A DNA stretch of 64,000 nucleotides, taken from IMG/VR virus record IMGVR_UViG_3300028833_000001, positions 287,171 through 351,170 of that record; one strand, given 5' to 3'. The position numbers and the translations under genes are program-made. This document shows positions 41,952 to 63,542 of this stretch, piece by piece. The notes below the pieces were generated by a model. The model saw only the letters and a program-made list of their open reading frames with translations. It had not been told where the DNA came from and did not search any database. The number at the start of each line of letters is the position of its first letter. The first letter of the stretch is position 1. This DNA comes from a virus. Lineage: Duplodnaviria; Heunggongvirae; Uroviricota; Caudoviricetes.

Positions 41952-45023
<3,072 letters not shown>

Positions 45024-51642: not shown

Positions 51643-52263
51643 ATGGAAAAATTATTTTACAAATGGCTTAGTAGCAGTAAGTATTTGAAGTTTCATCAAG
51701 AAATAAAAAACGCTTTACGCGTTATTAATGAATATAAACTTTATGAATCGCCAAAATTCTTTTCTGAAAATATTCAATTTGATAAAAACAATGAAACCTG
51801 TCTGATTGATTCTTCAAGTGAAAGTATTACTATTTGTAAAACTGTTGTTGAGTCTAAACAATCATATAACATATTTATCGGCAACATTCAAATTAGAGTT
51901 GAAGAAAATAATATTAATAAAGAACAGGTATATAGTATCCATATTAAAGAAAATAATGGGTTAAACTGGGAAATTAAAAGAAATGACGAAGATTTGGATT
52001 ATTGGGACTATTCACACCCGACAAACAAAACACTTAGAATTTTTGTTTGGTATGATGTACCAGTGTTAAACATCGCTCGTTCTGTTGGAGAAGTTTATGA
52101 AGCTGGAAACTGGAATAAGTATGTGTGCAAAACAATCGACTTTTTTACTACTGAAATTGATAAATGCACAGACTCATCAAGTTTCAACACAATGTATGAA
52201 GAATCGGATTGGGAAAATTTCAAAAATTGGTTTAAAAATTTGTTCAATAAAAAACAAATGTAA
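51643..52263 (+). CDS. hypothetical protein
   Basis: 206-aa ORF. Confidence 0.65.
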   Translation: MEKLFYKWLSSSKYLKFHQEIKNALRVINEYKLYESPKFFSENIQFDKNNETCLIDSSSESITICKTVVESKQSYNIFIGNIQIRVEENNINKEQVYSIHIKENNGLNWEIKRNDEDLDYWDYSHPTNKTLRIFVWYDVPVLNIARSVGEVYEAGNWNKYVCKTIDFFTTEIDKCTDSSSFNTMYEESDWENFKNWFKNLFNKKQM

Positions 52264-52379
52264 TAATAAATCAAATATGAAAAATACGATAGAATAATTT
52301 AAAAAAAAAACTTGATTTTTTTAAAAAATAATACTATTTATATTTTTGAAATCACATAAGAATTTTATATCATTGAAAT

Positions 52380-52505
52380 ATGTTAAATAACATCTTTAGG
52401 AATATAGACCCATTATATTTGGACGCCCATAACGGTATCCAACAAGAAAGTCTTGTTCCAACAAGAGCAAAAAATGAAAAACGTCTGAGGATGGTGGGAA
52501 AGTAA
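52380..52505 (+). CDS. possible 41-aa small ORF
   Basis: MLNNIFRNIDPLYLDAHNGIQQESLVPTRAKNEKRLRMVGK, followed by a strong terminator. Confidence 0.35.
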   Translation: MLNNIFRNIDPLYLDAHNGIQQESLVPTRAKNEKRLRMVGK

Positions 52506-52549
52506 ACAAACACAAAAACACATAGGTTTCTAACCACAACATATTTACC

Positions 52550-52590
52550 ACCACTGAAGACAATATAGAACATGTTTCAGTGGTTTTTTT
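52550..52590 (+). terminator. intrinsic terminator
   Basis: ACCACTGAAGACA...TGTTTCAGTGGT followed by a T-run. Confidence 0.85.
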
Positions 52591-52610
52591 ATGCCTGAAC
52601 CTATGTAAAC

Positions 52611-52691
52611 TGTCATTTTGACGTATTAAATGTCAATTTGGCACATAAGCATGACAAAATGCCATAAATTTAAATTGGCATGATGTTTGCA
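52611..52691 (+). promoter_or_regulatory. sigma-54 (-24/-12) promoter with upstream TGNCA-n3-TGNCA boxes
   Basis: TTGGCATGATGTTTGCA at 52675-52691. Boxes TGTCATTTTGAC, TGTCAATTTGGCA and TGACAAAATGCCA lie upstream. Confidence 0.65.
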
Positions 52692-52709
52692 TAAATAAAA
52701 AAACGACAT

Positions 52710-52782
52710 GGTGCCGTTAGCTCAGTGGGTAGAGCGCATGTCTGTGGAACATGAGGCGTTGGTTCAAATCCAACACGGCACC
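52710..52782 (+). tRNA. trnH: tRNA-His(GTG)
   Basis: Cloverleaf with G-1/C73 and anticodon loop CTGTGGA. Confidence 0.95.
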
Positions 52783-52794
52783 CGAAAAAAAAAG

Positions 52795-52852
52795 TTTGGA
52801 AGTTTAAAAAAAGATTTGTAATCTTACAAACACAAACGAGAGTTCTTTGAAA
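52795..52852 (+). promoter_or_regulatory. Bacteroidota-like promoter (TTTG...TAATCTTAC) plus boxA-like GTTCTTTGAAA
   Basis: A near-identical arrangement recurs at 53611-53643 and 53736-53747. Confidence 0.5.
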
Positions 52853-52865
52853 AAATTGAAATATA

Positions 52866-53310
52866 AAGTGATTGTGAGAATGATAGCAAAACAACTATCA
52901 TGCATAGGCGAGAAATCCCTATGTAGAATCTCCTAAATTCGGTAGAATCCTTAAAGGCGTTAGCCTTCGTAAGAGAGAAAATATGTAACCTCACTAAACA
53001 ATAATGTGGAAGGACTAACCGAGCGAAAATGTAATGCGGAATTTCAATAAGTTAGGAAGATATTACATAATCGTGTAGAGGCCAAACGGGAGATACCTAA
53101 GTTGGAATTTGTATAATTGAGGGATAGCGCAAGCAAGTATGTTTTCTTTTAACAGTTAACAGAACAATCAAATTATACATCTTGCAAGAATTCCAATATG
53201 GTAAGATGGTCCAGGCCACAACAACACTACAAGCAGTGTCGAAACCAGACATAAGTACTGTTGTAACAAAGTGTTGGCTATGATAACATAGTGTGGCATC
53301 ACAATTACTT
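52866..53310 (+). ncRNA. group I intron-like RNA, free-standing (no exons found)
   Basis: P3 ATCTCC/GGAGAT, P4 TTCGG/CCGAG, P6 CGA/TCG, P7 GAGGCCA/TGGTCC, P8 TACC/GGTA and P9 GCCAC/GTGGC. Closed by a terminal helix AAGTGATTGTGA/TCACAATTACTT. Confidence 0.75.
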
Positions 53311-53316
53311 TTACTT

Positions 53317-53389
53317 GCGCCCGTAACTCAGCTGGTAGAGTACATCCCTTTTAAGGATGGAGTCGTGGGTTCGAATCCCACCGAGCGCA
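53317..53389 (+). tRNA. trnK: tRNA-Lys(TTT)
   Basis: Cloverleaf with CATCC-CTTTTAA-GGATG. Confidence 0.95.
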
Positions 53390-53416
53390 CAATAATAAAT
53401 TTAAAATTATAATAAA

Positions 53417-53594
53417 ATGGAAGACGGGGCAAAAATTAAAAGAGTATCTTAAAAAAGAATTTGAATGGAATAATCATAAGAAGTATAGGAAATATTTTGA
53501 TGAATGGTATTCAAATTTAACAGAAAATCAAATACTATATTATAAAAGTTATTCTATTGGACAGAAATCACCATGGATTAAAATTGACAAATAA
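53417..53594 (+). pseudogene. small ORF with apparent frameshift in an A5 run
   Basis: ATG GAA GAC GGG GCA AAA A then stops. The shifted frame reads LKEYLKKEFEWNNHKKYRKYFDEWY...IDK*. Confidence 0.35.
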
Positions 53595-53654
53595 AAAAAA
53601 TGTAAGAAGATTTGGAAAATTTAAATTTAAATTGTATTCTTACATAGCGTTGAA

Positions 53655-53727
53655 CGGGTAGTGGCGCAGTTGGTAGCGCGCTTCATTTGGGATGAAGGGG
53701 TCGCAGGTTCGAGTCCTGTCTACCCGA
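53655..53727 (+). tRNA. trnP: tRNA-Pro(TGG)
   Basis: Cloverleaf with CTTCA-TTTGGGA-TGAAG. Confidence 0.95.
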
Positions 53728-53811
53728 CAAAAAAAGTTCTTTGACATATTGGAGAGAAGCTATTGAAATATATGTGGTAAAAACAATTTTTTGTTTTTAA
53801 AGCCAAATTAT

Positions 53812-53848
53812 ATCGTATAGTGGGCCTTTGTCTGCTGTACGATTTTTT
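53812..53848 (+). terminator. terminator-like hairpin inside the tRNA array
   Basis: 14-bp hairpin ATCGTATAGTGGGC/GTCTGCTGTACGAT followed by a T-run. Confidence 0.55.
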
Positions 53849-53849
53849 C

Positions 53850-53939
53850 GGAGGGGTGGCCGAGTGGTTTAAGGCAGCGGTCTTGAAAACCGCCGAGGTG
53901 TAACAGCCTCCGTGGGTTCGAATCCCACCCCCTCCGCCA
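53850..53939 (+). tRNA. trnS: tRNA-Ser(TGA)
   Basis: Long variable arm, loop CTTGAAA, encoded CCA. Confidence 0.95.
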
Positions 53940-54001
53940 TAATATAATGAAAACGTATATACATTTTGATTATCACAAATATTTATTAATAAACCAATAC
54001 T

Positions 54002-54718
54002 ATGAATCAGAAAAGAGAATACGTTAGAAAAAATTTGGATATAATAAACAAAATGATAGAAAACAAACGACCTAAGTTTGAAATAGCTAGGGTTTTGGGA
54101 GTTAAATATTCCACATTAGATAAATATTTAAAAGAATTTGGTATTGATTATAAAGGAAACCCAAATAGAAAGGGAATTCCGCATATGGAAGGAAGAATGC
54201 TAATTGAAGAATATTTAAATGGAAATAGAAACATACAAGCATCTAAACTAAGACAAAAACTAATAGAAAATGGTTTAAAAGAAGAAAAATGTGAATGCTG
54301 TGGGTTAACTGAATGGATGGGTAAAAAAATTCCGTTAGAACTTCACCATAAAAATATGAACCATAACGATAATAGTTTAGACAATCTTCAAATACTTTGT
54401 TCTAATTGTCATTCTTTAGCACATGAATATAATAATACAAAAGGTAAACCAGAAAGTTCTATTGATACTATTTTATTAAAAAAACGTGTTAAAGAGGTTG
54501 GTCATTGCAAACAGTGCGGAAAAGAATTAACAAATAGCCAGAAAATTTATTGTTCACAAGAGTGCGCTCATTTAAATGTTAGTAAAATACCACAAAAAAA
54601 CGAATTAATTGATAAATTAAATGAGTTTAACTGGAATAAAACAAAAACTGGTAAGTATTTTGGCGTAAGTGATAACGCAATTCGTAAATGGATTAAAAAG
54701 TACGACATAAAAAAATAA
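54002..54718 (+). CDS. HNH homing endonuclease with HTH domains
   Basis: CECCG...LELHHKN.NHNDNSLDNLQILCSNCH, a second CxxC..YCS..C finger and a C-terminal HTH. Confidence 0.9.
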   Translation: MNQKREYVRKNLDIINKMIENKRPKFEIARVLGVKYSTLDKYLKEFGIDYKGNPNRKGIPHMEGRMLIEEYLNGNRNIQASKLRQKLIENGLKEEKCECCGLTEWMGKKIPLELHHKNMNHNDNSLDNLQILCSNCHSLAHEYNNTKGKPESSIDTILLKKRVKEVGHCKQCGKELTNSQKIYCSQECAHLNVSKIPQKNELIDKLNEFNWNKTKTGKYFGVSDNAIRKWIKKYDIKK

Positions 54719-54719
54719 T

Positions 54720-54796
54720 ACCGCTGTGGGCAAATTGGTAAAGTCGGCTATTTTAGGGGTAGCGTCATATTGTCGGTTCGACTCCGACCAGCGGTA
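54720..54796 (+). tRNA. trnL: tRNA-Leu(TAG), short variable arm
   Basis: Acceptor ACCGCTG/CAGCGGT and GCTAT-TTTAGGG-GTAGC. Confidence 0.85.
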
Positions 54797-54809
54797 CAAT
54801 AAATAATTT

Positions 54810-54893
54810 GGCTCTGTGGTGGAATTGGTAGACACGACAGACTTAAAATCTGTTGTCCGAAAGGACGTGTGGGTTCGAGTCCCATTGGAGCCA
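54810..54893 (+). tRNA. trnL: tRNA-Leu(TAA)
   Basis: ACAGA-CTTAAAA-TCTGT with a long variable arm. Confidence 0.95.
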
Positions 54894-54898
54894 CATAA

Positions 54899-55044
54899 GC
54901 TCCTATAGTTCAATGGACAGAACAGAAGTTTCCTATACAAGAGTAAACTTGTTTAAATCATTTCTATGTGAAATTGGTTTTATTGGGTTCGAGTCCCACA
55001 CATAGAACAAACTTCAAATCTTGGTTCGAATCCAAGTAGGAGTA
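54899..55044 (+). tRNA. trnR: tRNA-Arg(CCT) interrupted by a 74-nt insert in the anticodon loop
   Basis: GAAGT-TTCCT[insert]AA-ACTTC. Acceptor, D and T arms are intact. Confidence 0.8.
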
Positions 55045-55063
55045 CTAAACACATAACATATAT

Positions 55064-55148
55064 GGGAGTGCGGTCACGATGGTGGAGTGGCGGCGGTCTG
55101 TAAAACCGTTACAACGAAACACAGTAGGTTCGAATCCTACCACTCCCA
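55064..55148 (+). tRNA. trnY: tRNA-Tyr(GTA)
   Basis: GCGGT-CTGTAAA-ACCGT. Confidence 0.9.
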
Positions 55149-55167
55149 CGAAACAGCGAACATGCAC

Positions 55168-55305
55168 AAGCGCAAACTGAAGGGGAATTGGTAAACCCTC
55201 GCCCCTAGATAACATCAGAGCAGGGAGGTTTGGTGAGGCAACCGTAAAAGTAATCCAGCATGTGTAGCAAGATGGAAGTTCTGGTTCGAGTCCAGATGAG
55301 CGCTT
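55168..55305 (+). ncRNA. enlarged tRNA-like RNA
   Basis: Ends AAGCGC/GCGCTT, D-arm AGGG-GAATTGGTAAA-CCCT, T-arm TCTGG-TTCGAGT-CCAGA. No canonical anticodon loop. Confidence 0.55.
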
Positions 55306-55315
55306 ATTTTATGAT

Positions 55316-55389
55316 GGGCCCATAGTGATAGTTGGTTAGCACGGGAGCTTTGCAAGCTCTTAGCCTGGGTTCGAGTCCCAGTGGGTCCA
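55316..55389 (+). tRNA. trnA: tRNA-Ala(TGC)
   Basis: G3.U70 pair and loop TTTGCAA. Confidence 0.92.
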
Positions 55390-55395
55390 CAAATT

Positions 55396-55568
55396 AAAAA
55401 CAAACAAGGAGAGTGGGCTCGGTGATAAAAAACCTTGTATGAAATGGGTTACAGGGGAAAACCGAAAAATAATGTCCTGCAAAGGATATTCACACGTAGG
55501 CTGGTTAATTATCGTGGCCAGGGCCTTTGCTATCAGGTGACTACGCAAATCCTGATGTGTTTGTTTTT
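55396..55568 (+). ncRNA. unknown multibranch structured RNA
   Basis: Terminal helix AAAAACAAACA/TGTTTGTTTTT enclosing four hairpins. Confidence 0.55.
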
Positions 55569-55606
55569 TTTGGTTCTATGGCTGAACTAGTAGACGCGAC
55601 AGAGTC

Positions 55607-55662
55607 ATCAAGGCAAAAGAACGGTTCGACTCCTTAGTGTAACGGTAGCACATTGTCTTGAT
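55607..55662 (+). ncRNA. circularly permuted tRNA-elbow-like RNA
   Basis: Helix ATCAAGGCAA/TTGTCTTGAT encloses a T-loop (GGTTCGACTCC) followed by a D-arm (GTGT-AACGGTA-GCAC). Confidence 0.5.
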
Positions 55663-55670
55663 TTTCTCAC

Positions 55671-55758
55671 GGAGGGTTACCCAAGCTGGTGAAGGGGACG
55701 GTTTGCTAAACCGTTAGGTCACGAAAGTGGCGCGAGAGTTCGAGCCTCTCACCCTCCG
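55671..55758 (+). tRNA. trnS: tRNA-Ser(GCT)
   Basis: ACGGT-TTGCTAA-ACCGT with a long variable arm. Confidence 0.95.
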
Positions 55759-55892
55759 CAAACAAATTTGGCTTTATAATACACATAAAGGACACACTCG
55801 CCAATACCAATTGGCAAGCGAGAGAAGTTAGCGCAGGACGGAATTGAGGCCGTAAGTGTGATAGTGAAATGTAAAGTGTATTTTTTGATAAA

Positions 55893-55963
55893 TGCTGTGA
55901 TGGTGTAATAGGAAGCATCACCAGAATATCTGGAGGTACAGGTTCAAGTCCGAAACACAGCAT
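55893..55963 (+). ncRNA. tRNA-like RNA with 3-nt anticodon loop
   Basis: Acceptor TGCTGTG/CACAGCA, CCAGA-ATA-TCTGG and a weak T-arm. Confidence 0.55.
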
Positions 55964-55977
55964 TGTTTTTAATATAT

Positions 55978-56092
55978 GTGTTGATGGCGCAATGGTAGAC
56001 GCACACATGCACGTGGTTCGCGGTTCGAGTCCGCAAGTAGTTGGGCACAACGAAAAAATGGTAGAATGATGGTTCGAATCCATCTCAACACA
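55978..56092 (+). ncRNA. tRNA-like RNA with two T-arms
   Basis: Acceptor GTGTTGA/TCAACAC, D-arm, internal GCGG-TTCGAGT-CCGC and terminal GATGG-TTCGAAT-CCATC. Confidence 0.6.
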
Positions 56093-56099
56093 CAATAAA

Positions 56100-56279
56100 T
56101 CCCCTATTAGTTCAATTGGCAGAACGTAGTTATATCAATTCTTTGACGAAAGAATAAATTGTATAACTAAGGTTGTAATTATTTTGTGAAGTAGTGACTT
56201 GTTGACAATGGGTGCGCAACAGAATCAAAGATTAGAGCTGTGAATCATTTTAACGGGGTTCGAATCCAACATAGGGGAC
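56100..56279 (+). ncRNA. giant tRNA-like RNA (~180 nt)
   Basis: Acceptor TCCCCTAT/ATAGGGGA, canonical D-arm, extended TAGTTATA/TATAACTA arm, very long variable region, TTCGAAT loop. Confidence 0.6.
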
Positions 56280-56291
56280 AGGTATAAGTAT

Positions 56292-56361
56292 CGGGATGTA
56301 GTTTAATGTTAAAATAATTGTGCTTAGGACAGTGATATAGGTGCGAATCCTATCATCTCGG
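56292..56361 (+). tRNA. Pro-like tRNA paralog with non-canonical anticodon loop (GCTTAGG)
   Basis: Body nearly identical to the next tRNA-Pro and with the same 3' trailer CAAATATTTCATA. T-loop is TGCGAAT. Confidence 0.5.
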
Positions 56362-56394
56362 CAAATATTTCATATAGTATAAACATAATAGCAT

Positions 56395-56527
56395 CGGGAT
56401 GTAGTTTAATTTGGTAAAATGCGTTAATTTTTTCGTGTTTTGTTCTTTAAAAACACAGACAGCAACTTTTCTTTAAAATTATTGTTTTGGGGAAACCGTG
56501 TTATAGGTTCGAATCCTATCATCCCGA
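56395..56527 (+). tRNA. trnP: tRNA-Pro(GGG) with 60-nt insert between positions 28/29
   Basis: CG[56424-56483]GTT-TTGGGGA-AACCG, with C1-G72 and A73. Confidence 0.75.
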
Positions 56528-56541
56528 CAAATATTTCATAT

Positions 56542-56615
56542 GGGCCATCAGTCCAGTTGGAGTGGATGCCACCCTGTCACGGTGGAGAACGCGGGTTCGA
56601 GTCCCGCATGGCCCG
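56542..56615 (+). tRNA. trnD: tRNA-Asp(GTC)
   Basis: CCACC-CTGTCAC-GGTGG. Confidence 0.95.
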
Positions 56616-56625
56616 CTTTATAAGC

Positions 56626-56739
56626 AACATTCCCAGTGAAAAAGGGTTAGTAGTAGCGTTGTACAGCCAGTAACCCTGAGATAGTATCAAAATCAACGGT
56701 TAGACGTAGATGAACTGTAAGTACAACTTTGGGAATGTT
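56626..56739 (+). ncRNA. unknown pseudoknotted RNA
   Basis: Terminal helix AACATTCCCA/TGGGAATGTT. The loop segment GTTGTAC of hairpin AGGGTTA/TAACCCT is complementary to GTACAAC at 56721-56727. Confidence 0.6.
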
Positions 56740-56753
56740 TGTAATAATAAAAT

Positions 56754-56827
56754 AGCGGATTAGCTCAGTTGGTTAGAGCAGTACTCTTATAAAGTAAAGG
56801 TCCCCAGTTCAAGCCTGGGATTCGCTA
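56754..56827 (+). tRNA. trnI: tRNA-Ile(TAT)
   Basis: TACT-CTTATAA-AGTA with intact arms. Confidence 0.85.
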
Positions 56828-56837
56828 CAATCAATAG

Positions 56838-57018
56838 TGCGGGATGGAGCAGAGGTCAGCTCGTCAGGCTCAATACAGAGTGGTTTTCTGAAAAAAACTG
56901 TTGATGCCAATTGTTCAAGAGAAGAGCCGATACACAATCAAATTGTGTGTCGAGGCTGGTTCGAGTCCAGCTGGCGTCGCTAACCTGAAGGTCGGGGGTT
57001 CGAATCCCTCTCCCGCTA
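56838..57018 (+). tRNA. trnfM: initiator-type tRNA-fMet(CAT) interrupted by a 108-nt insert containing a nested tRNA-like fold
   Basis: 1:72 mismatch, GGAGCAG..GCTCG D-arm and TCAGG-CTCA[56873-56980]TAA-CCTGA. Confidence 0.8.
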
Positions 57019-57022
57019 CAAA

Positions 57023-57211
57023 TCCAGGTGCATAACGATTTGAAACCGTAGTGGGTGTTAAAACCACAGCCTGGAATAATAAGATTGCAGCAATACTAGT
57101 CAGGCTGGTCTTTCCGTGAAAGTCGGACGTATTACCATGCAACGATAGCGTTGATACCTGTATAATGGCAGGTGTAGCAAATGGCCCGTCAGGTCGCTAC
57201 TGACGGTTTTT
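57023..57211 (+). ncRNA. run of unknown hairpin/junction RNAs ending in a terminator-like hairpin
   Basis: TCCAGG/CCTGGA junction, ATACCTGT/GCAGGTGT hairpin, CCGTCAG/CTGACGG followed by T5. Confidence 0.45.
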
Positions 57212-57213
57212 AT

Positions 57214-57290
57214 GGGGCTGTAGCTCAGTTGGAAGAGCGCTGGACTGAAAATCCAGGACGTTAGCGGTGGTTCGATTCCACCCAGCCCCG
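57214..57290 (+). tRNA. trnF: tRNA-Phe(GAA)
   Basis: CTGGA-CTGAAAA-TCCAG with a slightly long variable loop. Confidence 0.9.
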
Positions 57291-57398
57291 CGTGAAAGGA
57301 TGTAGTGTTCTTTGCCGTGTTTCAACAAAGTGCATCAACCAGCCTTTTGGATGTGGCGCCCAAGTCCATGAAAGGAGGACAAAATGAAAGCGGAGTAT

Positions 57399-57473
57399 GG
57401 GCTCGTAGCTCAGTCTGGTAGAGCATCTGATTTGCAATCAGAGGGTCATTGGTTCAAATCCCATCGTGGTCCA
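57399..57473 (+). tRNA. trnA: tRNA-Ala(TGC), second copy (imperfect acceptor/T stems)
   Basis: TCTGA-TTTGCAA-TCAGA. Confidence 0.8.
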
Positions 57474-57528
57474 CAAGCGATATCCGAATCAGTGAAATTA
57501 TCGTTCAATGAGTTGAAAGAAGATATCA

Positions 57529-57601
57529 AGTGTTTAGTATATCGGAAGTACGTTACCAAGAACGAGTTGGTAAAAGTGTGAGTTCGAATCCCACAACACT
57601 A
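57529..57601 (+). ncRNA. tRNA-like RNA, 7-bp anticodon stem, loop GAACGAG
   Basis: Acceptor AGTGTT/AACACT, D-arm, TTACCAA/TTGGTAA and TTCGAAT loop. Confidence 0.55.
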
Positions 57602-57608
57602 TAATAAT

Positions 57609-57679
57609 AGGTTCCTAGTTCAATGGTAGAATAATGGTCTCCAAAACCATAGATTGAGGTTCGAGTCCTTGGGTTCCTG
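57609..57679 (+). tRNA. trnW: tRNA-Trp(CCA)
   Basis: ATGGT-CTCCAAA-ACCAT, with two U.U mismatches in the acceptor. Confidence 0.88.
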
Positions 57680-57688
57680 CAATAAAAT

Positions 57689-57771
57689 AGCCAAGTGGCG
57701 GAATGGTAGACGCGAAGGTCTCAAAAACCTTTGGGGTAACCCCCGTGCGGGTTCAAGTCCCGCCTTGGCTA
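57689..57771 (+). tRNA. trnL: tRNA-Leu(CAA)
   Basis: AAGGT-CTCAAAA-ACCTT with a long variable arm. Confidence 0.95.
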
Positions 57772-57786
57772 CTGATAGAAAAATAA

Positions 57787-57855
57787 AGGATACATACAGC
57801 AAACCTTTTTTTTAAGCATCAAACTTTTAATTTGAAAACGCTAAGAAAGTATCCT
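57787..57855 (+). ncRNA. free-standing ACAGCAA element displaying a Lys(UUU) anticodon stem-loop
   Basis: Closing helix AGGATAC/GTATCCT, ATACAGCAA bulge and TCAAA-CTTTTAA-TTTGA. Confidence 0.65.
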
Positions 57856-57862
57856 GTTTTAA

Positions 57863-57935
57863 CGCCCTATCGACAAGTGGTTTAAGTCATCACCCTTTCA
57901 CGGTGGAGTCACGGGTTCGAATCCCGTTGGGGCGA
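57863..57935 (+). tRNA. trnE: tRNA-Glu(TTC)
   Basis: TCACC-CTTTCAC-GGTGG. Confidence 0.95.
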
Positions 57936-57954
57936 CAATAAAAAAAAATCAAAA

Positions 57955-58497
57955 ATGGAACAAGACGAATTGAATCACAACAGGCGTGTTTTCGCAAATA
58001 TTAACAAATTAGATATTGAAGATGTCCATCCAATCCCAAAGGTCGAATTAGTTGTTGGGAAAACATATAAAGGCAATTGTAGGAATTCAGATAATGCGGT
58101 TTGGGATGGAAAAGTATTTTGGTACGACAGGCACAAGTTTGGTAGTACATTTAGGGAAAGTATAAATCACTACGAAGATGATGATGGTTACGATGTTTTT
58201 GTCCCATTTGAAACAGATGAATCGTTTATTGTTCTTCCAGAAGATTCGGTTAAGAAACTTTCTGATAGAGATTATTGGGGTACTATTGAGAAAATATTTA
58301 TGGAAATTACCAATTTGATGACGGAAAAAGCATTTATTAATGAAGCTAAACATATGTACCCAAATATGTCAGATGAAGACATTAGAAAACAATTGAAAAA
58401 CATGCTTTACGATAATTATGGAAATATTGTAAGAGGTGCTGATATGTTTGATTTTAGTGGTAAGTTAAAAGGTGAACCAGGAACTCCTGGAAAATAA
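57955..58497 (+). CDS. hypothetical protein within the tRNA array
   Basis: 180-aa ORF with YKGNCRN...W...F.Y.R.KFG....INH.EDDDGYDVFVP. Confidence 0.75.
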   Translation: MEQDELNHNRRVFANINKLDIEDVHPIPKVELVVGKTYKGNCRNSDNAVWDGKVFWYDRHKFGSTFRESINHYEDDDGYDVFVPFETDESFIVLPEDSVKKLSDRDYWGTIEKIFMEITNLMTEKAFINEAKHMYPNMSDEDIRKQLKNMLYDNYGNIVRGADMFDFSGKLKGEPGTPGK

Positions 58498-58512
58498 TAA
58501 AACAAAAAAAAC

Positions 58513-58585
58513 GCCGATGTAGCTCAATTGGCAGAGCGTTACACTTGTAATGTAAATATTGTAGGTTCGATTCCTATCATCGGCT
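58513..58585 (+). tRNA. trnT: tRNA-Thr(TGT)
   Basis: TTACA-CTTGTAA-TGTAA. Confidence 0.95.
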
Positions 58586-58653
58586 CTTAAAATAAAATTT
58601 ATCCCGAAACGTGTTTTTAGCTTTTTATGACTATTTATAAAAAAAATAGTAAT

Positions 58654-59358
58654 ATGAATAATTTTGAAAATTGCAAATCGTTAAATGACATTGCTAGGCA
58701 AGAATTTGGAAAAGCAAACTATACTAATCGTGAGAAAGCTAAAAAACTATTATTTGAACACGGAATAGATTGGTTAGATTGGCTAGAATCTATTAAAATT
58801 TCTAATAAAAAGTTTTGTCTTGTTTGTGGTAAAGAATTAAGAAATGGTCAAACAAAATTTTGCAGCCATTCATGTTCTGCTGGATATAACAATAAGTTTC
58901 GAAAAACATATAAAGATAATGAAAGCCGAGAACATCATGAAAAAATTACCAAAAGTGACAAATTCTGTTTGTATTGTGGCGCAAAATTAACAAATCAACA
59001 AAAATTATTTTGTAATAATAAATGTCAACAAGATTTCAAGTATAAAGAATATATAGACCGATGGATAAATGGTGATGAAAATGGTTTAAAGGGCCAGTAT
59101 TCTTTATCAAGGCACATCAGGCGATTTTTATTGGAAAAAACAAATTGTAAATGTGAAAAATGTGGCTGGGGAGAAAAAAATCCATATACAAACACAATCC
59201 CATTAGAAATACATCATATTGATGGTGATTATACAAATAACAAGGAAGAGAATCTTCAGGTTTTGTGTCCAAATTGTCATTCTTTAACAGAAACACACAA
59301 ATCACATAATAAGAACGGAAGACAAGGTAGAAGAAAATATTATAAAAAAACAGAATAA
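58654..59358 (+). CDS. HNH homing endonuclease
   Basis: Two CxxCG..FC..C fingers and CEKCG...LEIHHIDGDYTNNKEENLQVLCPNCH. Start set at the second ATG, downstream of ACTATTTAT. Confidence 0.9.
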   Translation: MNNFENCKSLNDIARQEFGKANYTNREKAKKLLFEHGIDWLDWLESIKISNKKFCLVCGKELRNGQTKFCSHSCSAGYNNKFRKTYKDNESREHHEKITKSDKFCLYCGAKLTNQQKLFCNNKCQQDFKYKEYIDRWINGDENGLKGQYSLSRHIRRFLLEKTNCKCEKCGWGEKNPYTNTIPLEIHHIDGDYTNNKEENLQVLCPNCHSLTETHKSHNKNGRQGRRKYYKKTE

Positions 59359-59361
59359 GCT

Positions 59362-59622
59362 AAAGCTCTTTACCGATACGTAGCGGTAAATGGTGCGTAC
59401 CCAGGGTCAGACGCACGGTTGTATTCTGTACCTATATATGGATGATGTACAGCTTTTATGTGTAGGTTAAACAAATATGGCCCGACCAATAATATCTTAA
59501 TGCTGAGCGTGAATGAAGAAAACGGAAACCAAAGGCAACATAGCTGTAGCAGAATTTGATTGCAATGGATAACAGTGAAACACGCAAGATTCAGTAGATA
59601 ATGCTTTGACGGTTGCATTAAG
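59362..59622 (+). ncRNA. two unknown structured RNA domains
   Basis: Hairpins TTTACCG/CGGTAAA, GTGCGT/ACGCAC and CTGTAC/GTACAG. A second domain is closed by CTTAATGC/GCATTAAG. Confidence 0.45.
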
Positions 59623-59628
59623 GTAGCA

Positions 59629-59699
59629 AGTGGAGTAGCTTTATAAGGATGAGCCTTGGATTTTACCAAGAGGTGGTAGTTCGAATCTGCCCTCCACAA
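59629..59699 (+). ncRNA. tRNA-like RNA with 6-nt anticodon loop (ATTTTA)
   Basis: GTGGAG/CTCCAC, CTTGG/CCAAG and GGTAG-TTCGAAT-CTGCC. Confidence 0.55.
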
Positions 59700-59917
59700 C
59701 AAAAGCAAACGAAACCAGTTGACCAGATGGGATAAAACGCATAGTCATCCGTGATGCCACTGCGGATTAATAAATAGATGGCTAAGACGGAGGTAACGTT
59801 ACCGTTTAAACAACTATATTTTTAATGCTGACAGAGCGGGCGTGGAAAGTTCTTGAAATGTTAATATAAAACTGCCAGAATCGCAAAATTGTACGGGTTT
59901 GCACGTGCAAAACTTTT

Positions 59918-59989
59918 GGGGAGGTAGCTCAACGGTAGAGCAACTGGCTGTTAACCAGTAGGTTGTGGGTTCGAAACCCACCCTCCCCG
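59918..59989 (+). tRNA. trnN: tRNA-Asn(GTT)
   Basis: ACTGG-CTGTTAA-CCAGT. Confidence 0.95.
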
Positions 59990-59994
59990 CGAAT

Positions 59995-60407
59995 ATACCA
60001 ATTAACAGTAGGCTTGAAAGCAGCCATCTGATAATGAGTTGCGAGAGGAAGTTTGCGTGGAAGTCATGACTCCGCAAAATAACAAGGCGCATGTGAGTAA
60101 CTTGGCAATAAGCATGTGAGAAACACCTCAGGAATAGCGAACGTGGAAATCCCCGATGCAAAGAAAGGAACACAGTTGAAATACTGTGCGAGGTTCCAGT
60201 AGCGTGACGGTGCATCGAAGCTATGTAGCTAAGTTTTATGTAAGCCCCAACAGTACGAGAGGAACCTGGGGTCAATGGGTGCCATGAATTTGGTTTCTAT
60301 GCCGTAAGTGAGTCGGTAAAGAACGCGAGAAGTATCAAGTGAAGACTCGCGCCCAAAAGCATAAAACAGTCCTTAGAGCATTTGGCGTGGCAGCACATAA
60401 TTGGTAT
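59995..60407 (+). ncRNA. 23S rRNA-mimic RNA: GTPase-associated centre (H42-44) + sarcin-ricin loop
   Basis: Closing helix ATACCAATTA/TAATTGGTAT, H43-like CAGTAGGCTTGAAAGCAGCCATCTG, H44-like GCGTGGCAGCACA, and SRL AGTACGAGAGGAACC at 60252-60266 in a GCCCCA/TGGGGT helix. Confidence 0.85.
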
Positions 60408-60410
60408 TAT

Positions 60411-60482
60411 GCGGGTATAGCACAACGGTTAGTGTGCCAGCTTGCCATGCTGGAAATGTCAGTTCGATTCTGATTACCCGCT
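60411..60482 (+). tRNA. trnG: tRNA-Gly(GCC)
   Basis: CCAGC-TTGCCAT-GCTGG. Confidence 0.93.
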
Positions 60483-60487
60483 CATAT

Positions 60488-60561
60488 GGCGGCATAGCGG
60501 AGTTGGTTTCATGCGCCGCTCTCATAAGGCGGAGACGGTGGTTCGAATCCACCTGCCGCCA
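60488..60561 (+). tRNA. trnM: tRNA-Met(CAT) elongator (or lysidine Ile2)
   Basis: CCGCT-CTCATAA-GGCGG with a paired G1-C72. Confidence 0.88.
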
Positions 60562-60562
60562 C

Positions 60563-60787
60563 AAGTCAAGAACAGACCACCGAGTAGTGTTCGGGGTAAA
60601 TTGAATGGGGATGTATACTTAACCAGTCAATGTAGTCTTGGGTGGTGTGACCCTCAGCCCGATGAAAAGTGTCAGTTATCGTGAGGTACTGTAGCGCAAC
60701 GCAACAGGAGGTAAAACCCTATGTGGTAACGCAATCCTCGTCTAGCCGAGGTTTCTCCAGTCCGTAGCTCGTAAATTTTCTTGACTT
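60563..60787 (+). ncRNA. unknown ~225-nt multibranch RNA
   Basis: Perfect 10-bp terminal helix AAGTCAAGAA/TTCTTGACTT enclosing several GC-rich hairpins. Confidence 0.6.
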
Positions 60788-60796
60788 ATTTTTTTT

Positions 60797-60915
60797 CGGG
60801 GAGTAGCTCAGTTGGTTAGAGCGCGTAATGTAGATTCTTGTAAAAGAATCAAACAGCAATGTTTACGAATGTCATTTGAAGACCGTGGTCGTGGGTTCGA
60901 GTCCCACCTCCCCAG
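60797..60915 (+). tRNA. Gln(TTG)-anticodon tRNA with 45-nt insert between positions 28/29
   Basis: CG[60826-60870]GTC-ATTTGAA-GACCG, canonical D and T arms, C1.A72 and G73. Confidence 0.7.
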
Positions 60916-60923
60916 CAAATTAT

Positions 60924-61078
60924 ATTTGGCTAATTTGAGGTTCAAGAAGGCCCCCGTAAGATGGACAATCGTGGGGGCAATGCTTGAGATGGATACTGTG
61001 AAGGGACAGCCATAAGTCATGAAGTACAGTTAGATGTGGGGTCTGGTGGAATGACAGACTGTGTAGGATTAACCAAAT
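60924..61078 (+). ncRNA. unknown ~155-nt multibranch RNA
   Basis: Closing helix ATTTGGCTAAT/ATTAACCAAAT, with GCCCCC/GGGGGC, TCAAG/CTTGA and GTCTG/CAGAC. Confidence 0.55.
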
Positions 61079-61082
61079 TTAT

Positions 61083-61153
61083 TGAGCCATCGTCTAACGG
61101 CAAGACACCAGATTTTGGTTCTGGGAATCGAGGTTCGAATCCTCGTGGCTCAA
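61083..61153 (+). tRNA. trnQ: tRNA-Gln(TTG)
   Basis: CCAGA-TTTTGGT-TCTGG with U1-A72. Confidence 0.93.
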
Positions 61154-61160
61154 CAAACAA

Positions 61161-61233
61161 CTTCCCATAGTTCAATGGATTAGAACGTGAGTCCACGAAA
61201 CTCAAGATTGGGGTTCGAGTCCCTGTGGGGAGA
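61161..61233 (+). tRNA. trnR: tRNA-Arg(ACG)
   Basis: TGAGT-CCACGAA-ACTCA (C33). Confidence 0.88.
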
Positions 61234-61271
61234 CTTAATACATATATCGAAATAGTTTCAATCCAGAATAT

Positions 61272-61346
61272 GCGTCTGTAGCTCAGTTTGGTTAGAGCAC
61301 TACACTGATAATGTAGGGGTCGCTGGTTCAAGTCCAGCCAGACGCA
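61272..61346 (+). tRNA. trnI: tRNA-Ile(GAT)
   Basis: CTACA-CTGATAA-TGTAG. Confidence 0.95.
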
Positions 61347-61379
61347 CTTGAGTTGATGCTAACATGGCACAACTATTAT

Positions 61380-61455
61380 GCGGGTGTAGCTCAGTTGGTT
61401 CAGTAGCGCTTGCCTTACAAGCAAGAGGTCGTAGGTTCGACTCCTACCATCCGCA
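61380..61455 (+). tRNA. trnV: tRNA-Val(TAC)
   Basis: CTTGC-CTTACAA-GCAAG. Confidence 0.93.
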
Positions 61456-61465
61456 CATTTATTAT

Positions 61466-61540
61466 GCTCCAGTAGCTCAATGGATGAGCGGCACCCTTCT
61501 AAGGTGCGGGTTGTAGGTTCGAGTCCTACCTGGAGTACCA
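61466..61540 (+). tRNA. trnR: tRNA-Arg(TCT)
   Basis: GCACC-CTTCTAA-GGTGC with encoded CCA. Confidence 0.95.
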
Positions 61541-61615
61541 TATATAGATAGGGCCGAATTGGTGATGGAATGCCAAAGTTAAATAAGCTTTGGTAAGTAA
61601 AGAAATGTTATCATT

Positions 61616-61861
61616 ATGAGTGAATTTGGAGAATTTAAAAGAAATAATTATTTGGTCAATCATCCGTATGGTAATCCATATGAGAATAAAGCATTTGTGC
61701 TTACTGCGGAGCAACAAAAAGAGCTTGAACGCAAAGTGGATTTAGAATGGACATTGTATTATTTGAAGAAAGCAATTAGATTGTTTGGTGATATTAAAAT
61801 CAGTGATGCAATTGCCAAAACAAAACACGAACTTGAGCCTAAAATCAATTTTAAGCATTAA
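61616..61861 (+). CDS. hypothetical protein
   Basis: 81-aa ORF after the array. Confidence 0.6.
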   Translation: MSEFGEFKRNNYLVNHPYGNPYENKAFVLTAEQQKELERKVDLEWTLYYLKKAIRLFGDIKISDAIAKTKHELEPKINFKH

Positions 61862-61877
61862 AAATGCATGTTTTAAA

Positions 61878-63542
61878 TTAAAAACCGCAATATGAAATTG
61901 TTTGAGATTGCATTTCAGCCCATATTGATGATGACCCGCTTAATTTAAGGTCGGTATTGTAGGCATGCGTCTTCCAGCATGGTTCGCATAGAATATATGA
62001 TATATCAGCGTTTAATTCAATTTGAAGTGAATAATTATGAGTACTTGACGTTCCAGTTGCAGTTAAAGACGCATCTGTAAGTGTTTGGTTTGTATATGCC
62101 ACGCCAGAAGAAGTTGATATTGTTGTAGTTGTATCAGTATAATATGGGGCGACATATGTTAATTCAAATGTTTCAGAGACTATTGAAGTGTTTGTTGTGT
62201 TGTCAAATAAGGTGTATATGGCGCTACCGCTAAGAACTGTTATTGAGTGAAATTTTGAATATGTAATACCACTTAAATAACAATTAATTATTGGTGACGC
62301 AATCATAATGGTTGTAGCGTTTGGGGCTGAAAATGTTGCAACATTTCCAGTAAGTGACATATTTCCTGAATATACACGCGCATTTGAAAACCATTCAGAA
62401 CTATTTTGGTCGAATGACCCAGCTAGGTTTGAAAAATCTTCAATTGAAGTATAGTTATTATAATCAGTCGATGGAGTGTATGTTTTAATACTTGTAACTT
62501 CACCGCTCCAGTAAGATGTAGTGATATACCCAGTAATTGGTGGGTTTTCAGGAAAATCATCTCCAGGGTTATAAGGATTAGTTCTTAAATAATCTTCAAT
62601 TCTAAGTGTAAGTATATCTTGATTTGTGGCTATTGTACTGTAAACAAAAGGTTGGTTACTCAATTCAGGCGGTTGCTGCACTCTTGAATAATTTTTATAG
62701 TTACCAAGACTTTGTGCTATATTTGGTATTATATCAGGAAACGTTTCTTCAAGTCTTAAATTTGATGCAACCTCTCCGTCTCCGCTTAAAATATGATTAA
62801 AGCTATTATATAGCGCAAAGATATTACTACTAGTTTGCGTTGCTTCGTATAGTCTTGTGGTTTTTATTGATGGTTTAAACCCATTACGTGATGCTTTAAA
62901 ATAAGATATAGTACCAGGTATCCCGCTTACATATGTGTTGTTTCCAGTATTACCTGTTACTACGATATTACCATCATGCCCAGAATATACATAATTTACA
63001 TTAGAAATTGAACAATTATTGGTGTCTATAAAGTTATGCGTTGTACTGATTGGGAATTGTCTGACATTAACTGAACCAATTTTAGGGTATGATGGCGAAA
63101 AAGTTTTAATACCAGTTTCAACACCGTCATATATTTCAGAATATATTGTCCAATAGAATGGGTTATCGTCACCGTGAATTTCGTCAGCCACATAATCAAA
63201 GTATCCGTTTTCCCTTGTAGAAAGCGTGAAAGGTATGAACGTATTCCCTGTCATGGTATATCGTTTGTCTCTTTGATATTTGTCTATTTCTCTAGAGTCC
63301 AACCAAGGAGGAAGATATAATGTATTCGTAATAACAACACCAGAATTCCAAATTGACACGTCGCGTCCGCTGTTTCTTTCTAACAGACTTCTGCATTGTG
63401 TAACATTTCCTCCGCTCACAATAAAAAATGGGTTTGTTTGTCTGTCAGTTATGATAATAGAGTTTTCTATTGGCGTTCTTCCGTCAGCATGATAAACAGA
63501 AAAATTAAATTCAAATTTCCAAAATAATTTATTTACAGCCAT
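61878..63542 (-). CDS. hypothetical Ser/Thr-rich, probable virion protein
   Basis: 554 aa, preceded by CTATTTAT (63561-63568, - strand). Confidence 0.7.
   Translation of the reverse strand: MAVNKLFWKFEFNFSVYHADGRTPIENSIIITDRQTNPFFIVSGGNVTQCRSLLERNSGRDVSIWNSGVVITNTLYLPPWLDSREIDKYQRDKRYTMTGNTFIPFTLSTRENGYFDYVADEIHGDDNPFYWTIYSEIYDGVETGIKTFSPSYPKIGSVNVRQFPISTTHNFIDTNNCSISNVNYVYSGHDGNIVVTGNTGNNTYVSGIPGTISYFKASRNGFKPSIKTTRLYEATQTSSNIFALYNSFNHILSGDGEVASNLRLEETFPDIIPNIAQSLGNYKNYSRVQQPPELSNQPFVYSTIATNQDILTLRIEDYLRTNPYNPGDDFPENPPITGYITTSYWSGEVTSIKTYTPSTDYNNYTSIEDFSNLAGSFDQNSSEWFSNARVYSGNMSLTGNVATFSAPNATTIMIASPIINCYLSGITYSKFHSITVLSGSAIYTLFDNTTNTSIVSETFELTYVAPYYTDTTTTISTSSGVAYTNQTLTDASLTATGTSSTHNYSLQIELNADISYILCEPCWKTHAYNTDLKLSGSSSIWAEMQSQTISYCGF

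Follow-up and report, generated by a model that had tools for sequence, protein, structure and literature searches.

The 64,000-nucleotide (nt) stretch of phage DNA analysed here (IMG/VR record IMGVR_UViG_3300028833_000001, positions 287,171 to 351,170; hereafter the window) carries an island of 30 transfer RNA (tRNA) genes on one strand, four of which are interrupted by inserts. Comparison of the island with related loci supports that the spacers between these genes encode conserved structured RNAs mimicking pieces of the translation machinery: six or more non-tRNA elements are shared with the tRNA islands of other phages and show compensatory base changes, and one of them, which we refer to as the GAC-SRL RNA, combines parts of the GTPase-associated centre (GAC) and the sarcin-ricin loop (SRL) of 23S ribosomal RNA (rRNA). 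The original prediction, made from the sequence alone, had described the island as a polycistronic set of tRNAs and of decoy and effector RNAs that defend translation; that observation is partly confirmed and its interpretation partly supported. In total, we lean slightly towards the reading that the island encodes translation-mimic RNAs that would be co-transcribed with the tRNAs and act as decoys or traps in trans.

A phage RNA with sequence homology to 23S rRNA

The GAC-SRL RNA (about 411 nt, positions 59996-60406, + strand) lies 5 nt 3' of tRNA-Asn and 4 nt 5' of tRNA-Gly. Inside its closing helix it contains a copy of helix 43 (H43) and the 5' strand of H44 of 23S rRNA (60006-60039), an SRL hairpin (60245-60271) located within an inserted domain, and a copy of the H44 loop (60381-60398). 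In L086, a 110-kb viral contig (L-numbers denote comparison loci), the RNA is 91% identical while the protein encoded by a neighbouring open reading frame (ORF) is only 56% identical.

The first family search used a two-anchor pattern that required both SRL and GAC words, and it returned two viral and 14 true metagenome loci; a match in L091 shared no other common block with these and was dropped as a chance hit. A pattern independent of the SRL added six further distinct members, giving a family of about 22 members on viral and metagenome contigs, the carriers having GC contents of 0.26-0.60. tRNA arrays contain or adjoin the family RNA in 13 of 17 loci, often with a tRNA 1-35 nt away; for 7 of 16 members, 1-29 nt separate the closing helix from the 3' end of a tRNA upstream on the same strand; and in L086, tRNAs identified with Rfam directly flank the RNA on both sides. 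The mimic RNAs abut same-strand tRNAs, an arrangement compatible with their being freed by RNase P and by processing of tRNA 3' ends. The family pattern had no match in 185,579 prokaryote genomes, no family in Rfam 15 matched the RNA, and we found no description of it in the papers searched.

In an alignment of 16 sequences (A4), RNAalifold predicted 34 base pairs, 20 of them with compensatory changes. In these pairs, 93.9% of the alignment cells were paired, compared to 73.9% in shuffled alignments and 31-45% when the partners were slid; moreover, the covariation score was 0.53 compared to at most 0.13 in the slid controls, and none of 500 shuffles reached 0.53. The family profile matched E. 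coli 23S rRNA at 1055-1088, i.e. H43 and the 5' strand of H44, with an expectation value (E) of 7.4e-7 in a 10-Mb search space, the 3' block corresponds to the hairpin loop of H44, and the covarying closing helix stands at the position of H42. A search of the whole phage genome with E. coli rRNA (blastn-short) gave nothing above noise, and the homology is seen only with the family profile. The RNA resembles the GAC (23S 1051-1108) in sequence but not in junction architecture: instead of three arms within about 58 nt, its junction has four, the fourth being an additional covarying helix (A4 columns 53-55 with 458-460) that interrupts the 5' strand of H44 and connects to the inserted domain of about 350 nt.

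The SRL hairpin has a 12-nt core identical to E. coli 2654-2665, with a bulged-G S-turn, a GAGA tetraloop closed by C-G and a helical stem that covaries, six of its seven pairs being compensatory. The hairpin is intact or nearly so in four of the six independently found members; among the variants, L107 has a GGGA loop, the L109 group has a non-GNRA loop, and the 265-nt L112 has no hairpin. In total, we conclude from sequence comparison that the frame of the GAC-SRL RNA is homologous to the L11- and thiostrepton-binding GTPase-associated centre (23S H42-H44); family profile and covariation agree that the rRNA mimic first proposed from the sequence is real and conserved in other phages.

What such an RNA might do admits several explanations. 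The large non-coding RNAs (ncRNAs) of the island could be RNA-only assemblies or scaffolds like ROOL and GOLLD, in which rRNA-like parts serve as folding modules. Like ROOL and GOLLD, they are large multibranched RNAs of phage tRNA islands with no annotated proteins, and both the three-way junction of the GAC and the S-turn of the SRL fold robustly on their own; however, neither the window nor seven related loci matched the Rfam models of GOLLD or ROOL, and the conserved loop bases go beyond the structural core and include those contacted by L11, thiostrepton and factors. We regard this explanation as improbable.

We consider unlikely, while giving it more weight, a host takeover in which the GAC-SRL RNA would titrate translational GTPases, RelA or stalk proteins (L11, L10-L7/L12, L6), with the effect that translation is reprogrammed, (p)ppGpp signalling is blunted or host ribosome assembly is blocked. 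The H43/H44 frame is nearly base-for-base as in 23S rRNA, oligonucleotides of the SRL or the GAC alone suffice to bind EF-G, as does the 58-nt GAC on its own to bind L11; moreover, the presence of the family in phages with GC contents from 0.26 to 0.60 points to a universal host target. However, titration of abundant factors or ribosomal proteins would demand very high RNA levels, and the phage depends on working host ribosomes.

Other structured RNAs conserved among phages

Further elements were compared with L086 and with L138, the locus of a second jumbo phage (G001, 372 kb) that has a tRNA island of 17 kb. Upstream of the array, and outside the coordinates of the original prediction, a + strand element at 52309-52590 has relatives in L102 and L100 (nhmmer, E ~1.5e-6), where they lie just 5' of the GAC-SRL RNA. 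The element contains an invariant 25-nt core (52519-52543) and an intrinsic-terminator hairpin with a T-run (52547-52590), and the region 52264-52710 has a folding z-score of -5.2.

Element 1 (60563-60787, + strand) is a 225-nt multibranch RNA with a 10-base-pair (bp) closing helix and is 87-100% identical to its counterpart in L086. A third copy is present in G001, and in the three-sequence fold 14 of 51 pairs show compensatory changes and the closing helix covaries. In L086, the hairpin tip of element 1 carries a 62-nt insertion composed of two near-identical repeats of about 30 nt (6170-6235). Element 2 (60926-61076, + strand, 151 nt) is 85% identical to L086 7663-7812; all substitutions in its predicted stems keep the pair, with one double change and five wobble-compatible changes.

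Three + strand elements have acceptor and T arms and lack the combination of a 5-bp stem and a 7-nt loop, and are therefore tRNA-like RNAs rather than tRNAs. The element at 55978-56092 has a perfect 7-bp acceptor stem, a D-like stem, a T arm and an internal copy of the T arm (56020-56034); its homologue in G001 (L138 11056-11174) is 77% identical, with 11 of 26 pairs compensatory and none broken. A 178-nt element at 56101-56278, detected by ARAGORN only at a lowered threshold, combines a perfect 7-bp acceptor stem with a long internal region, and a perfect 7-bp acceptor stem also closes the element nested in the insert of the initiator tRNA described below. The weakest of the three (59629-59699; Rfam 32.7 bits), called 'tRNA-???' by ARAGORN at a lowered threshold, has a 6-nt anticodon loop and is 97% identical in L098.

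A free-standing 70-nt module (57787-57856, + strand) consists of a 7-bp closing stem, the heptamer ACAGCAA and a stem-loop (57819-57835) with the 7-nt loop of the tRNA-Lys(UUU) anticodon arm. The core is kept in the G001 homologue (L138 3219-3278), in which 4 of 14 pairs are compensatory and none is broken: the closing stem is fully changed yet paired, and the arm has one compensatory change.

Altogether, T-arm-like motifs number eight in spacers and two within inserts. Both the proposed T-arm (elbow) mimics and the anticodon mimic of the Lys arm are confirmed, with conserved counterparts in other phages, and the proposed tRNA-like RNAs without a normal anticodon arm are borne out by the eight spacer motifs and the 7-bp acceptor stems. 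Covariation across related phages, suggested earlier as a check, revealed structural conservation for at least six elements.

Interrupted tRNA genes

The four interrupted genes are on the + strand. Rfam added three long tRNA matches (54899-55044, 56395-56527 and 60797-60915) with insertions of 45-76 nt, and the intron mode of ARAGORN added an initiator-like tRNA (56838-57019) with a 108-nt insert. On other arrays this mode mostly fuses adjacent tRNAs, and its calls were accepted only with independent support.

The inserts fall into two classes. Class I inserts (Arg and fMet) lie in the anticodon loop at about positions 35-37 and begin with NUAC and a small hairpin, followed by an acceptor-like stem around a T-arm copy, one unpaired base and the 3' exon. 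The 74-nt insert (54935-55008) of tRNA-Arg(CCT) (54899-55044; Rfam 51.3 bits with a 76-nt insertion) folds into a small hairpin and then a 9-bp stem around the T-arm copy. In the initiator-like tRNA-Met(CAT) (56838-57019), the 108-nt insert (56873-56980) holds a complete cloverleaf-like tRNA mimic (56903-56979), and folded alone it adopts a hairpin and a cloverleaf in the unconstrained minimum free energy (MFE) fold (z -4.07; none of 200 shuffles was as stable). Class II inserts (Pro and Gln) lie in the anticodon stem at positions 28/29, after CG, and consist of a hairpin, two bases and the heptamer ACAGCAA. They are the 60-nt insert (56424-56483) of tRNA-Pro(GGG) (56395-56527; Rfam 42.1 bits) and the 45-nt insert (60826-60870) of tRNA-Gln(TTG) (60797-60915; Rfam 43.5 bits), the latter with a folding z-score of -2.9 and the same junction and heptamer as the former.

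Excision of the inserts in silico gave cloverleaves for all four tRNAs, with boundaries that were clean for Pro(GGG) and Met(CAT) and were set by eye for Arg(CCT) and Gln(TTG); only after this excision do the interrupted tRNAs conform to the RF00005 cloverleaf. The excised Met(CAT) has the 1-72 mismatch of bacterial initiators, and because of this mismatch and the bacterial-type GAC we judge the host to be bacterial.

Both classes are found in G001. This phage has an interrupted fMet gene with the same architecture and a diverged insert, a Thr(TGT) gene with an insert that begins like class I, and a tandem of three tRNAs that all carry a class II insert at positions 28/29; the three hairpins are near-identical, and one of the heptamers has G in first position. 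Moreover, the heptamer occurs eight times in the 17-kb island, mostly directly after a helix strand. In the tRNA contexts of the GAC-SRL loci, neither the heptamer nor the class I start motif was found; besides the window, they turned up in G001 only. A 15-nt pattern spanning the fMet exon-insert junction matched viral contigs 83 times, never in a tRNA context, and these matches are ascribed to chance.

The predicted insert folds contain no bulge-helix-bulge, although no search aimed at that motif was made. The complete phage genome encodes neither RtcB nor a tRNA-splicing endonuclease (PF01974), the enzyme required by protein-spliced tRNA introns, the search for the latter having positive controls from archaea only. 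tRNA-splicing endonuclease is not known from bacteria.

These observations bear on two explanations. In the first, the inserts are selfish intron-like mobile modules that are spread by HNH endonucleases or recombination and spliced out, without function in trans. Two HNH genes lie within the island, the insert positions (35-37 or 28/29) are fixed in different tRNAs of two phages, class II hairpins are near-identical among the three tandem tRNAs of G001, arrays are fluid, as shown by an extra tRNA-His in L098, and the phage RNA ligase and kinase could seal the exons. By contrast, splicing endonuclease, RtcB and a ribozyme fold were all not found, and the elaborate tRNA-like insert folds and the conserved free-standing class II copy suggest that the modules do something. 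We treat this explanation as possible and on balance doubtful. The fluidity is seen in the close relative L098, in which positions 1398-1840, compared to 59619-59667 of the window, contain about 130 extra bases and an extra tRNA-His between blocks of 96-97% identity, which indicates that arrays gain and lose units fast.

In the second, the island is an ordinary tRNA array in which the spacers are decaying tRNA pseudogenes or filler, the inserts are random and the rRNA likeness is due to chance. The unremarkable folding z-scores of many spacers, the noise-level BLAST search with E. coli rRNA and the many false 'introns' called by ARAGORN intron mode in other arrays are in line with it. However, the strong covariation in six elements largely refutes an ordinary array; also, the ncRNA is conserved at 91% between phages compared to only 56% for the neighbouring protein, both insert classes occupy the same tRNA positions in G001, precise excision brings back cloverleaves, and the family profile matches 23S rRNA (E 7.4e-7). 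We therefore consider an ordinary array very improbable.

Proposed release and action of the mimic RNAs

Genes for an RNA ligase (PF09414 with a PHA02142 OB domain; genome C1:7011-7583), for a P-loop kinase at a distance of 1.5 kb from it and for a CCA-adding enzyme are present elsewhere in the phage genome; such a set is expected if the tRNAs of a phage come under attack. In the decoy or trap reading that we prefer, the mimic RNAs would be co-transcribed with the flanking tRNAs, probably in several units, and cleavage of the adjoining tRNAs by RNase P and the 3' tRNA-processing enzymes would set them free. Their targets in trans would be proteins that normally bind to the ribosomal factor-binding site, the tRNA elbow or the (Lys) anticodon loop; most likely, they would divert host toxins directed at rRNA or tRNA during infection, as decoys, or trap host translation factors. 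So far, this reading does not distinguish between anti-defence decoys and host-takeover traps.

The interrupted tRNAs carry two classes of intron-like modules. These may be cut out, with the tRNA then sealed by the phage RNA ligase and kinase; alternatively, they may stay unexcised and give non-decoding tRNA look-alikes. For class I, we hypothesize that RNase Z cuts after the single base following the mimic, leaving a 5'-phosphate exactly on the 3' exon that the phage ligase could use, a scheme that covers the 3' cut only. Two more specific readings are put forward tentatively, as possible and on balance doubtful. In one, the GAC-SRL RNA, produced by many uncultured phages, would be a free-standing bait replica of the factor-binding site (for rRNA-directed toxins of defence systems, translational GTPases or RelA). 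In the other, the tRNA inserts of jumbo phages of bacteria would be true intervening sequences of two new classes, in one of which the tRNA mimic could be cut by host RNase P and RNase Z and the tRNA resealed by a phage ligase.

Several points weigh against our reading. The phage genome encodes no L11, L7/L12 or EF-Tu-type translational GTPase of its own. The SRL is not indispensable, given the replaced tetraloop of the L109 group and the absence of the hairpin from a short member; moreover, the invariance of SRL and GAC in A4 is partly built in, both words having been required by the first search. The lack of a tRNA-splicing endonuclease and RtcB in the phage genome, the terminator-like hairpins inside the island, which argue against one polycistron, and the several spacers without relatives and with unremarkable folding scores count in the same direction.

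Transcription signals and unclassified spacers

Nine spacers have GC contents of 0.39-0.47 compared to 0.336 for the genome, and the AT-rich gaps have 0.16-0.29. MFE folding z-scores of the spacers are mixed (+0.3 to -5.2) and, like the terminal-helix test applied to whole spacers, are weak discriminators; the case for structured RNAs rests on the comparison with other phages. The original prediction held that most domains are closed by their own terminal helix, whereas a clear helix closing the entire spacer was found in only three or four of 15 spacers.

The transcription signals that it listed fared no better. Matches to sigma70-like promoters (32 sites compared to 33.3 expected) and boxA motifs (38 compared to 41.4 expected) are at chance level, as is the count of terminators in the window. 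Sigma54-like promoters are likewise at chance level as a group (31 compared to 26.8 expected), but a single + strand -24/-12 motif with one mismatch (52676-52691) lies 20 nt ahead of the first tRNA; given the window-wide count, this candidate site is a lead only. Terminator-like hairpins on the + strand inside the island (53812-53843 and 57186-57206), together with the conserved terminator-ended element ahead of the array, make a single polycistronic transcript doubtful.

A ribozyme-like RNA had also been proposed. A group I or other ribozyme reading of 52866-53310 is not supported: 52780-53320 gave no Rfam ribozyme match at E<=10 with lax filters, and the group I intron core (RF00028) had no match anywhere in 52000-62500 at E<=1. 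The 533-nt spacer in question (52784-53316, + strand) is structured (folding z-score -3.7) and unclassified, and has no homologue among the comparison loci.

Two further + strand spacers stand out. The 114-nt RNA at 56626-56739, to which no class is assigned, has an 11-bp closing helix (p 0.003 compared to shuffles) and a z-score of -2.9, and has no relatives among the comparison loci. The GC-rich 194-nt spacer at 57020-57213 (GC 0.45, z -2.3) has a terminator-like hairpin at 57186-57211 directly 5' of tRNA-Phe. For spacers 53391-53654, 55150-55670, 57292-57608 and most of 59359-59917, no distant relatives were found among the comparison loci; these remain unclassified and may be decayed tRNA genes or plain spacers.

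tRNA gene content and genome context

The island is part of a 361,445-bp jumbo phage genome (GC 0.336) that CheckV rates as complete. ARAGORN identified 26 uninterrupted tRNA genes (52711-61540), all on the + strand, for 19 amino acids with Cys absent; 25 are normal and one, with an abnormal loop (56292-56362), is aberrant. The set comprises His, Lys, Pro, Ser (two), Leu (three), Tyr, Ala (two), Asp, Ile (two), Phe, Trp, Glu, Thr, Asn, Gly, Met, Gln, Arg (two) and Val in addition to the aberrant gene. Their RF00005 scores are 29-77 bits, and 29 Rfam matches in the window reach at least 29 bits. Outside the island, the genome has a single further tRNA, Gly(TCC). ARAGORN and Rfam together uphold the earlier counts of 25 intact tRNAs, four insert-bearing tRNAs and 19 amino acids, and all tRNA genes are, as claimed, on one strand.

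For the aberrant gene, ARAGORN reports the anticodon TTA, which would read UAA, in a loop G-C-TTA-G-G without U33. The aberrant gene and the interrupted Pro(GGG) gene that follows it after 30 nt are paralogues, and the long ORFs of the window are open under the standard code; a non-decoding tRNA look-alike is more likely than a suppressor. Related islands contain permuted transfer-messenger RNA genes (RF04321; L086 9522-9756, 62 bits; L138 7816-8034, 52 bits), and the window has none.

The original prediction treated the island as RNA only and overlooked three + strand protein genes that take up about 2 kb. An HNH homing endonuclease gene (54002-54718; 238 amino acids (aa); phrog_10822, E 6.5e-40; weak Pfam HNH and HTH matches) has its stop 1 nt ahead of tRNA-Leu, and a second HNH endonuclease gene (58627-59358; 243 aa) matches phrog_1271 (E 4.4e-22) with weak Pfam HNH and zinc-ribbon matches. 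Between them, an ORF of 180 aa with no assigned function (57955-58497; phrog_18490, E 8e-27) has relatives in L085 and L086 and further homologues in jumbo Erwinia, Yersinia and Serratia phages, and these homologues likewise adjoin tRNA arrays.

Compared to GenBank phages (megablast), the island has only two or three tRNA-sized matches. Viral contigs contained no relatives of the two flanking proteins (554 aa and 206 aa), and for the 554-aa protein only identical copies were found among 5.8 billion proteins. 3' of this orphan gene, beyond the window, the phage encodes an HD-domain protein, an nSTAND3/AAA ATPase and an HSP70/MreB-like protein; the ATPase is notable in a phage, STAND ATPases being characteristic of defence systems. 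Two independent assemblies of the same phage (L084, a JGI contig, and a Logan contig, SRR9006730) break at the 3' edge of the island, about 300 nt beyond an 81-aa ORF (61616-61861), which suggests assembly trouble or strain variation in the island.

The window also contains tail-fibre, SbcCD-like, primase, prohead-protease and dihydrofolate reductase-thymidylate synthase genes. The last is a 539-aa single-ORF fusion (49748-51367), a bifunctional form typical of protists and plants and unusual in a phage. The 1023-aa tail-fibre gene (41952-45023), with collagen-like repeats and many PHROG tail-fibre matches, coincides with a jump in GC content (0.456 at 42-44 kb). Finally, an RNA-repair-like gene row on the minus strand outside the window (genome C1:5040-8990; L115, L105) encodes a 292-aa protein with a C-terminal AAA_33 kinase domain, a DUF932 protein, a 415-aa RNA ligase and a vWA/DUF7788 protein.

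Significance and comparison with known systems

Structured RNAs embedded in phage tRNA islands are a kind already known from T4, GOLLD and ROOL. New members of this kind are the GAC-SRL chimera and the conserved look-alikes of the tRNA elbow and anticodon arm; new too are the two classes of intervening sequences, not of group I, by which tRNA genes of a bacterial virus are interrupted. The function of the T4 species 1 and 2, GOLLD and ROOL RNAs is still open. RNAs that can be read, such as fused elements of the GTPase docking site, the elbow and the Lys arm, turn a vague class of ncRNA into testable hypotheses about partners. If they are decoys, they would add an RNA-based layer to the arms race between phage and host over translation and point to defence toxins aimed at the SRL or the GTPase centre. 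Interrupted tRNA genes that are not of group I raise the question of how they are processed without a splicing endonuclease, and resealing of tRNAs after RNase P and RNase Z cuts, if it occurs, would be a splicing route new to bacteria. Finally, the GAC-SRL RNA is a compact natural construct for studies of factor and antibiotic binding at this site.

The tRNA cluster of T4 encodes the stable 'species 1 and 2' RNAs (rnaC, rnaD), and T4 uses Pnkp and Rnl1 to repair the damage done by the anticodon nuclease PrrC. As in T4, where RNA ends are made by tRNA-processing enzymes, the island places non-tRNA RNAs among phage tRNA genes on one strand, has homing endonuclease genes in the cluster and belongs to a phage that encodes an RNA ligase and a kinase. 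T4 differs in having two small RNAs without known rRNA likeness, whereas the island has six or more conserved classes, an rRNA mimic of 411 nt and tRNA genes with inserts; the two clusters are likened by description.

GOLLD and ROOL RNAs are found near phage tRNA islands (10.1101/2024.12.08.627333, PMC5737381). Similarly to GOLLD (RF01998) and ROOL (RF03087), which are large, conserved, multibranched RNAs of phages and prophages often adjoining tRNA islands, the RNAs described here are conserved among such islands; in contrast, they are of smaller size (150-440 nt), the derivation from 23S rRNA is visible in one of them, and the GAC-SRL family was not found in the prokaryote genomes searched, i.e. 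not in prophages.

Like archaeal and eukaryal tRNA introns and group I introns, the inserts are short sequences in the anticodon loop or at a non-canonical stem position, and their removal restores the tRNA. Unlike archaeal and eukaryal introns, they occur in a phage that has a bacterial host and no splicing endonuclease gene; unlike group I introns, they have no Rfam ribozyme and, at 45-108 nt, are far too short; and unlike known tRNA introns, class I inserts contain a tRNA mimic and class II inserts share a heptamer.

There is precedent for a phage RNA as an anti-defence decoy in the pseudo-ToxI of phage PhiTE (PMC3475682). Y RNAs (YrlA) and pseudo-ToxI, like the RNAs described here, imitate a cellular RNA to engage its protein partners; unlike for pseudo-ToxI, the decoy role of the island RNAs is putative. 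Ro60 and Y RNA searches gave no match, the sole YrlA hit (E 0.85) overlapping two real tRNAs. In comparison with leaders of ribosomal protein operons that mimic rRNA (L10 leader), the GAC-SRL RNA is a free-standing phage gene and not an mRNA leader. Finally, GAC and SRL are 1,600 nt apart in 23S rRNA, whereas in the phage both stand in one RNA of about 400 nt.

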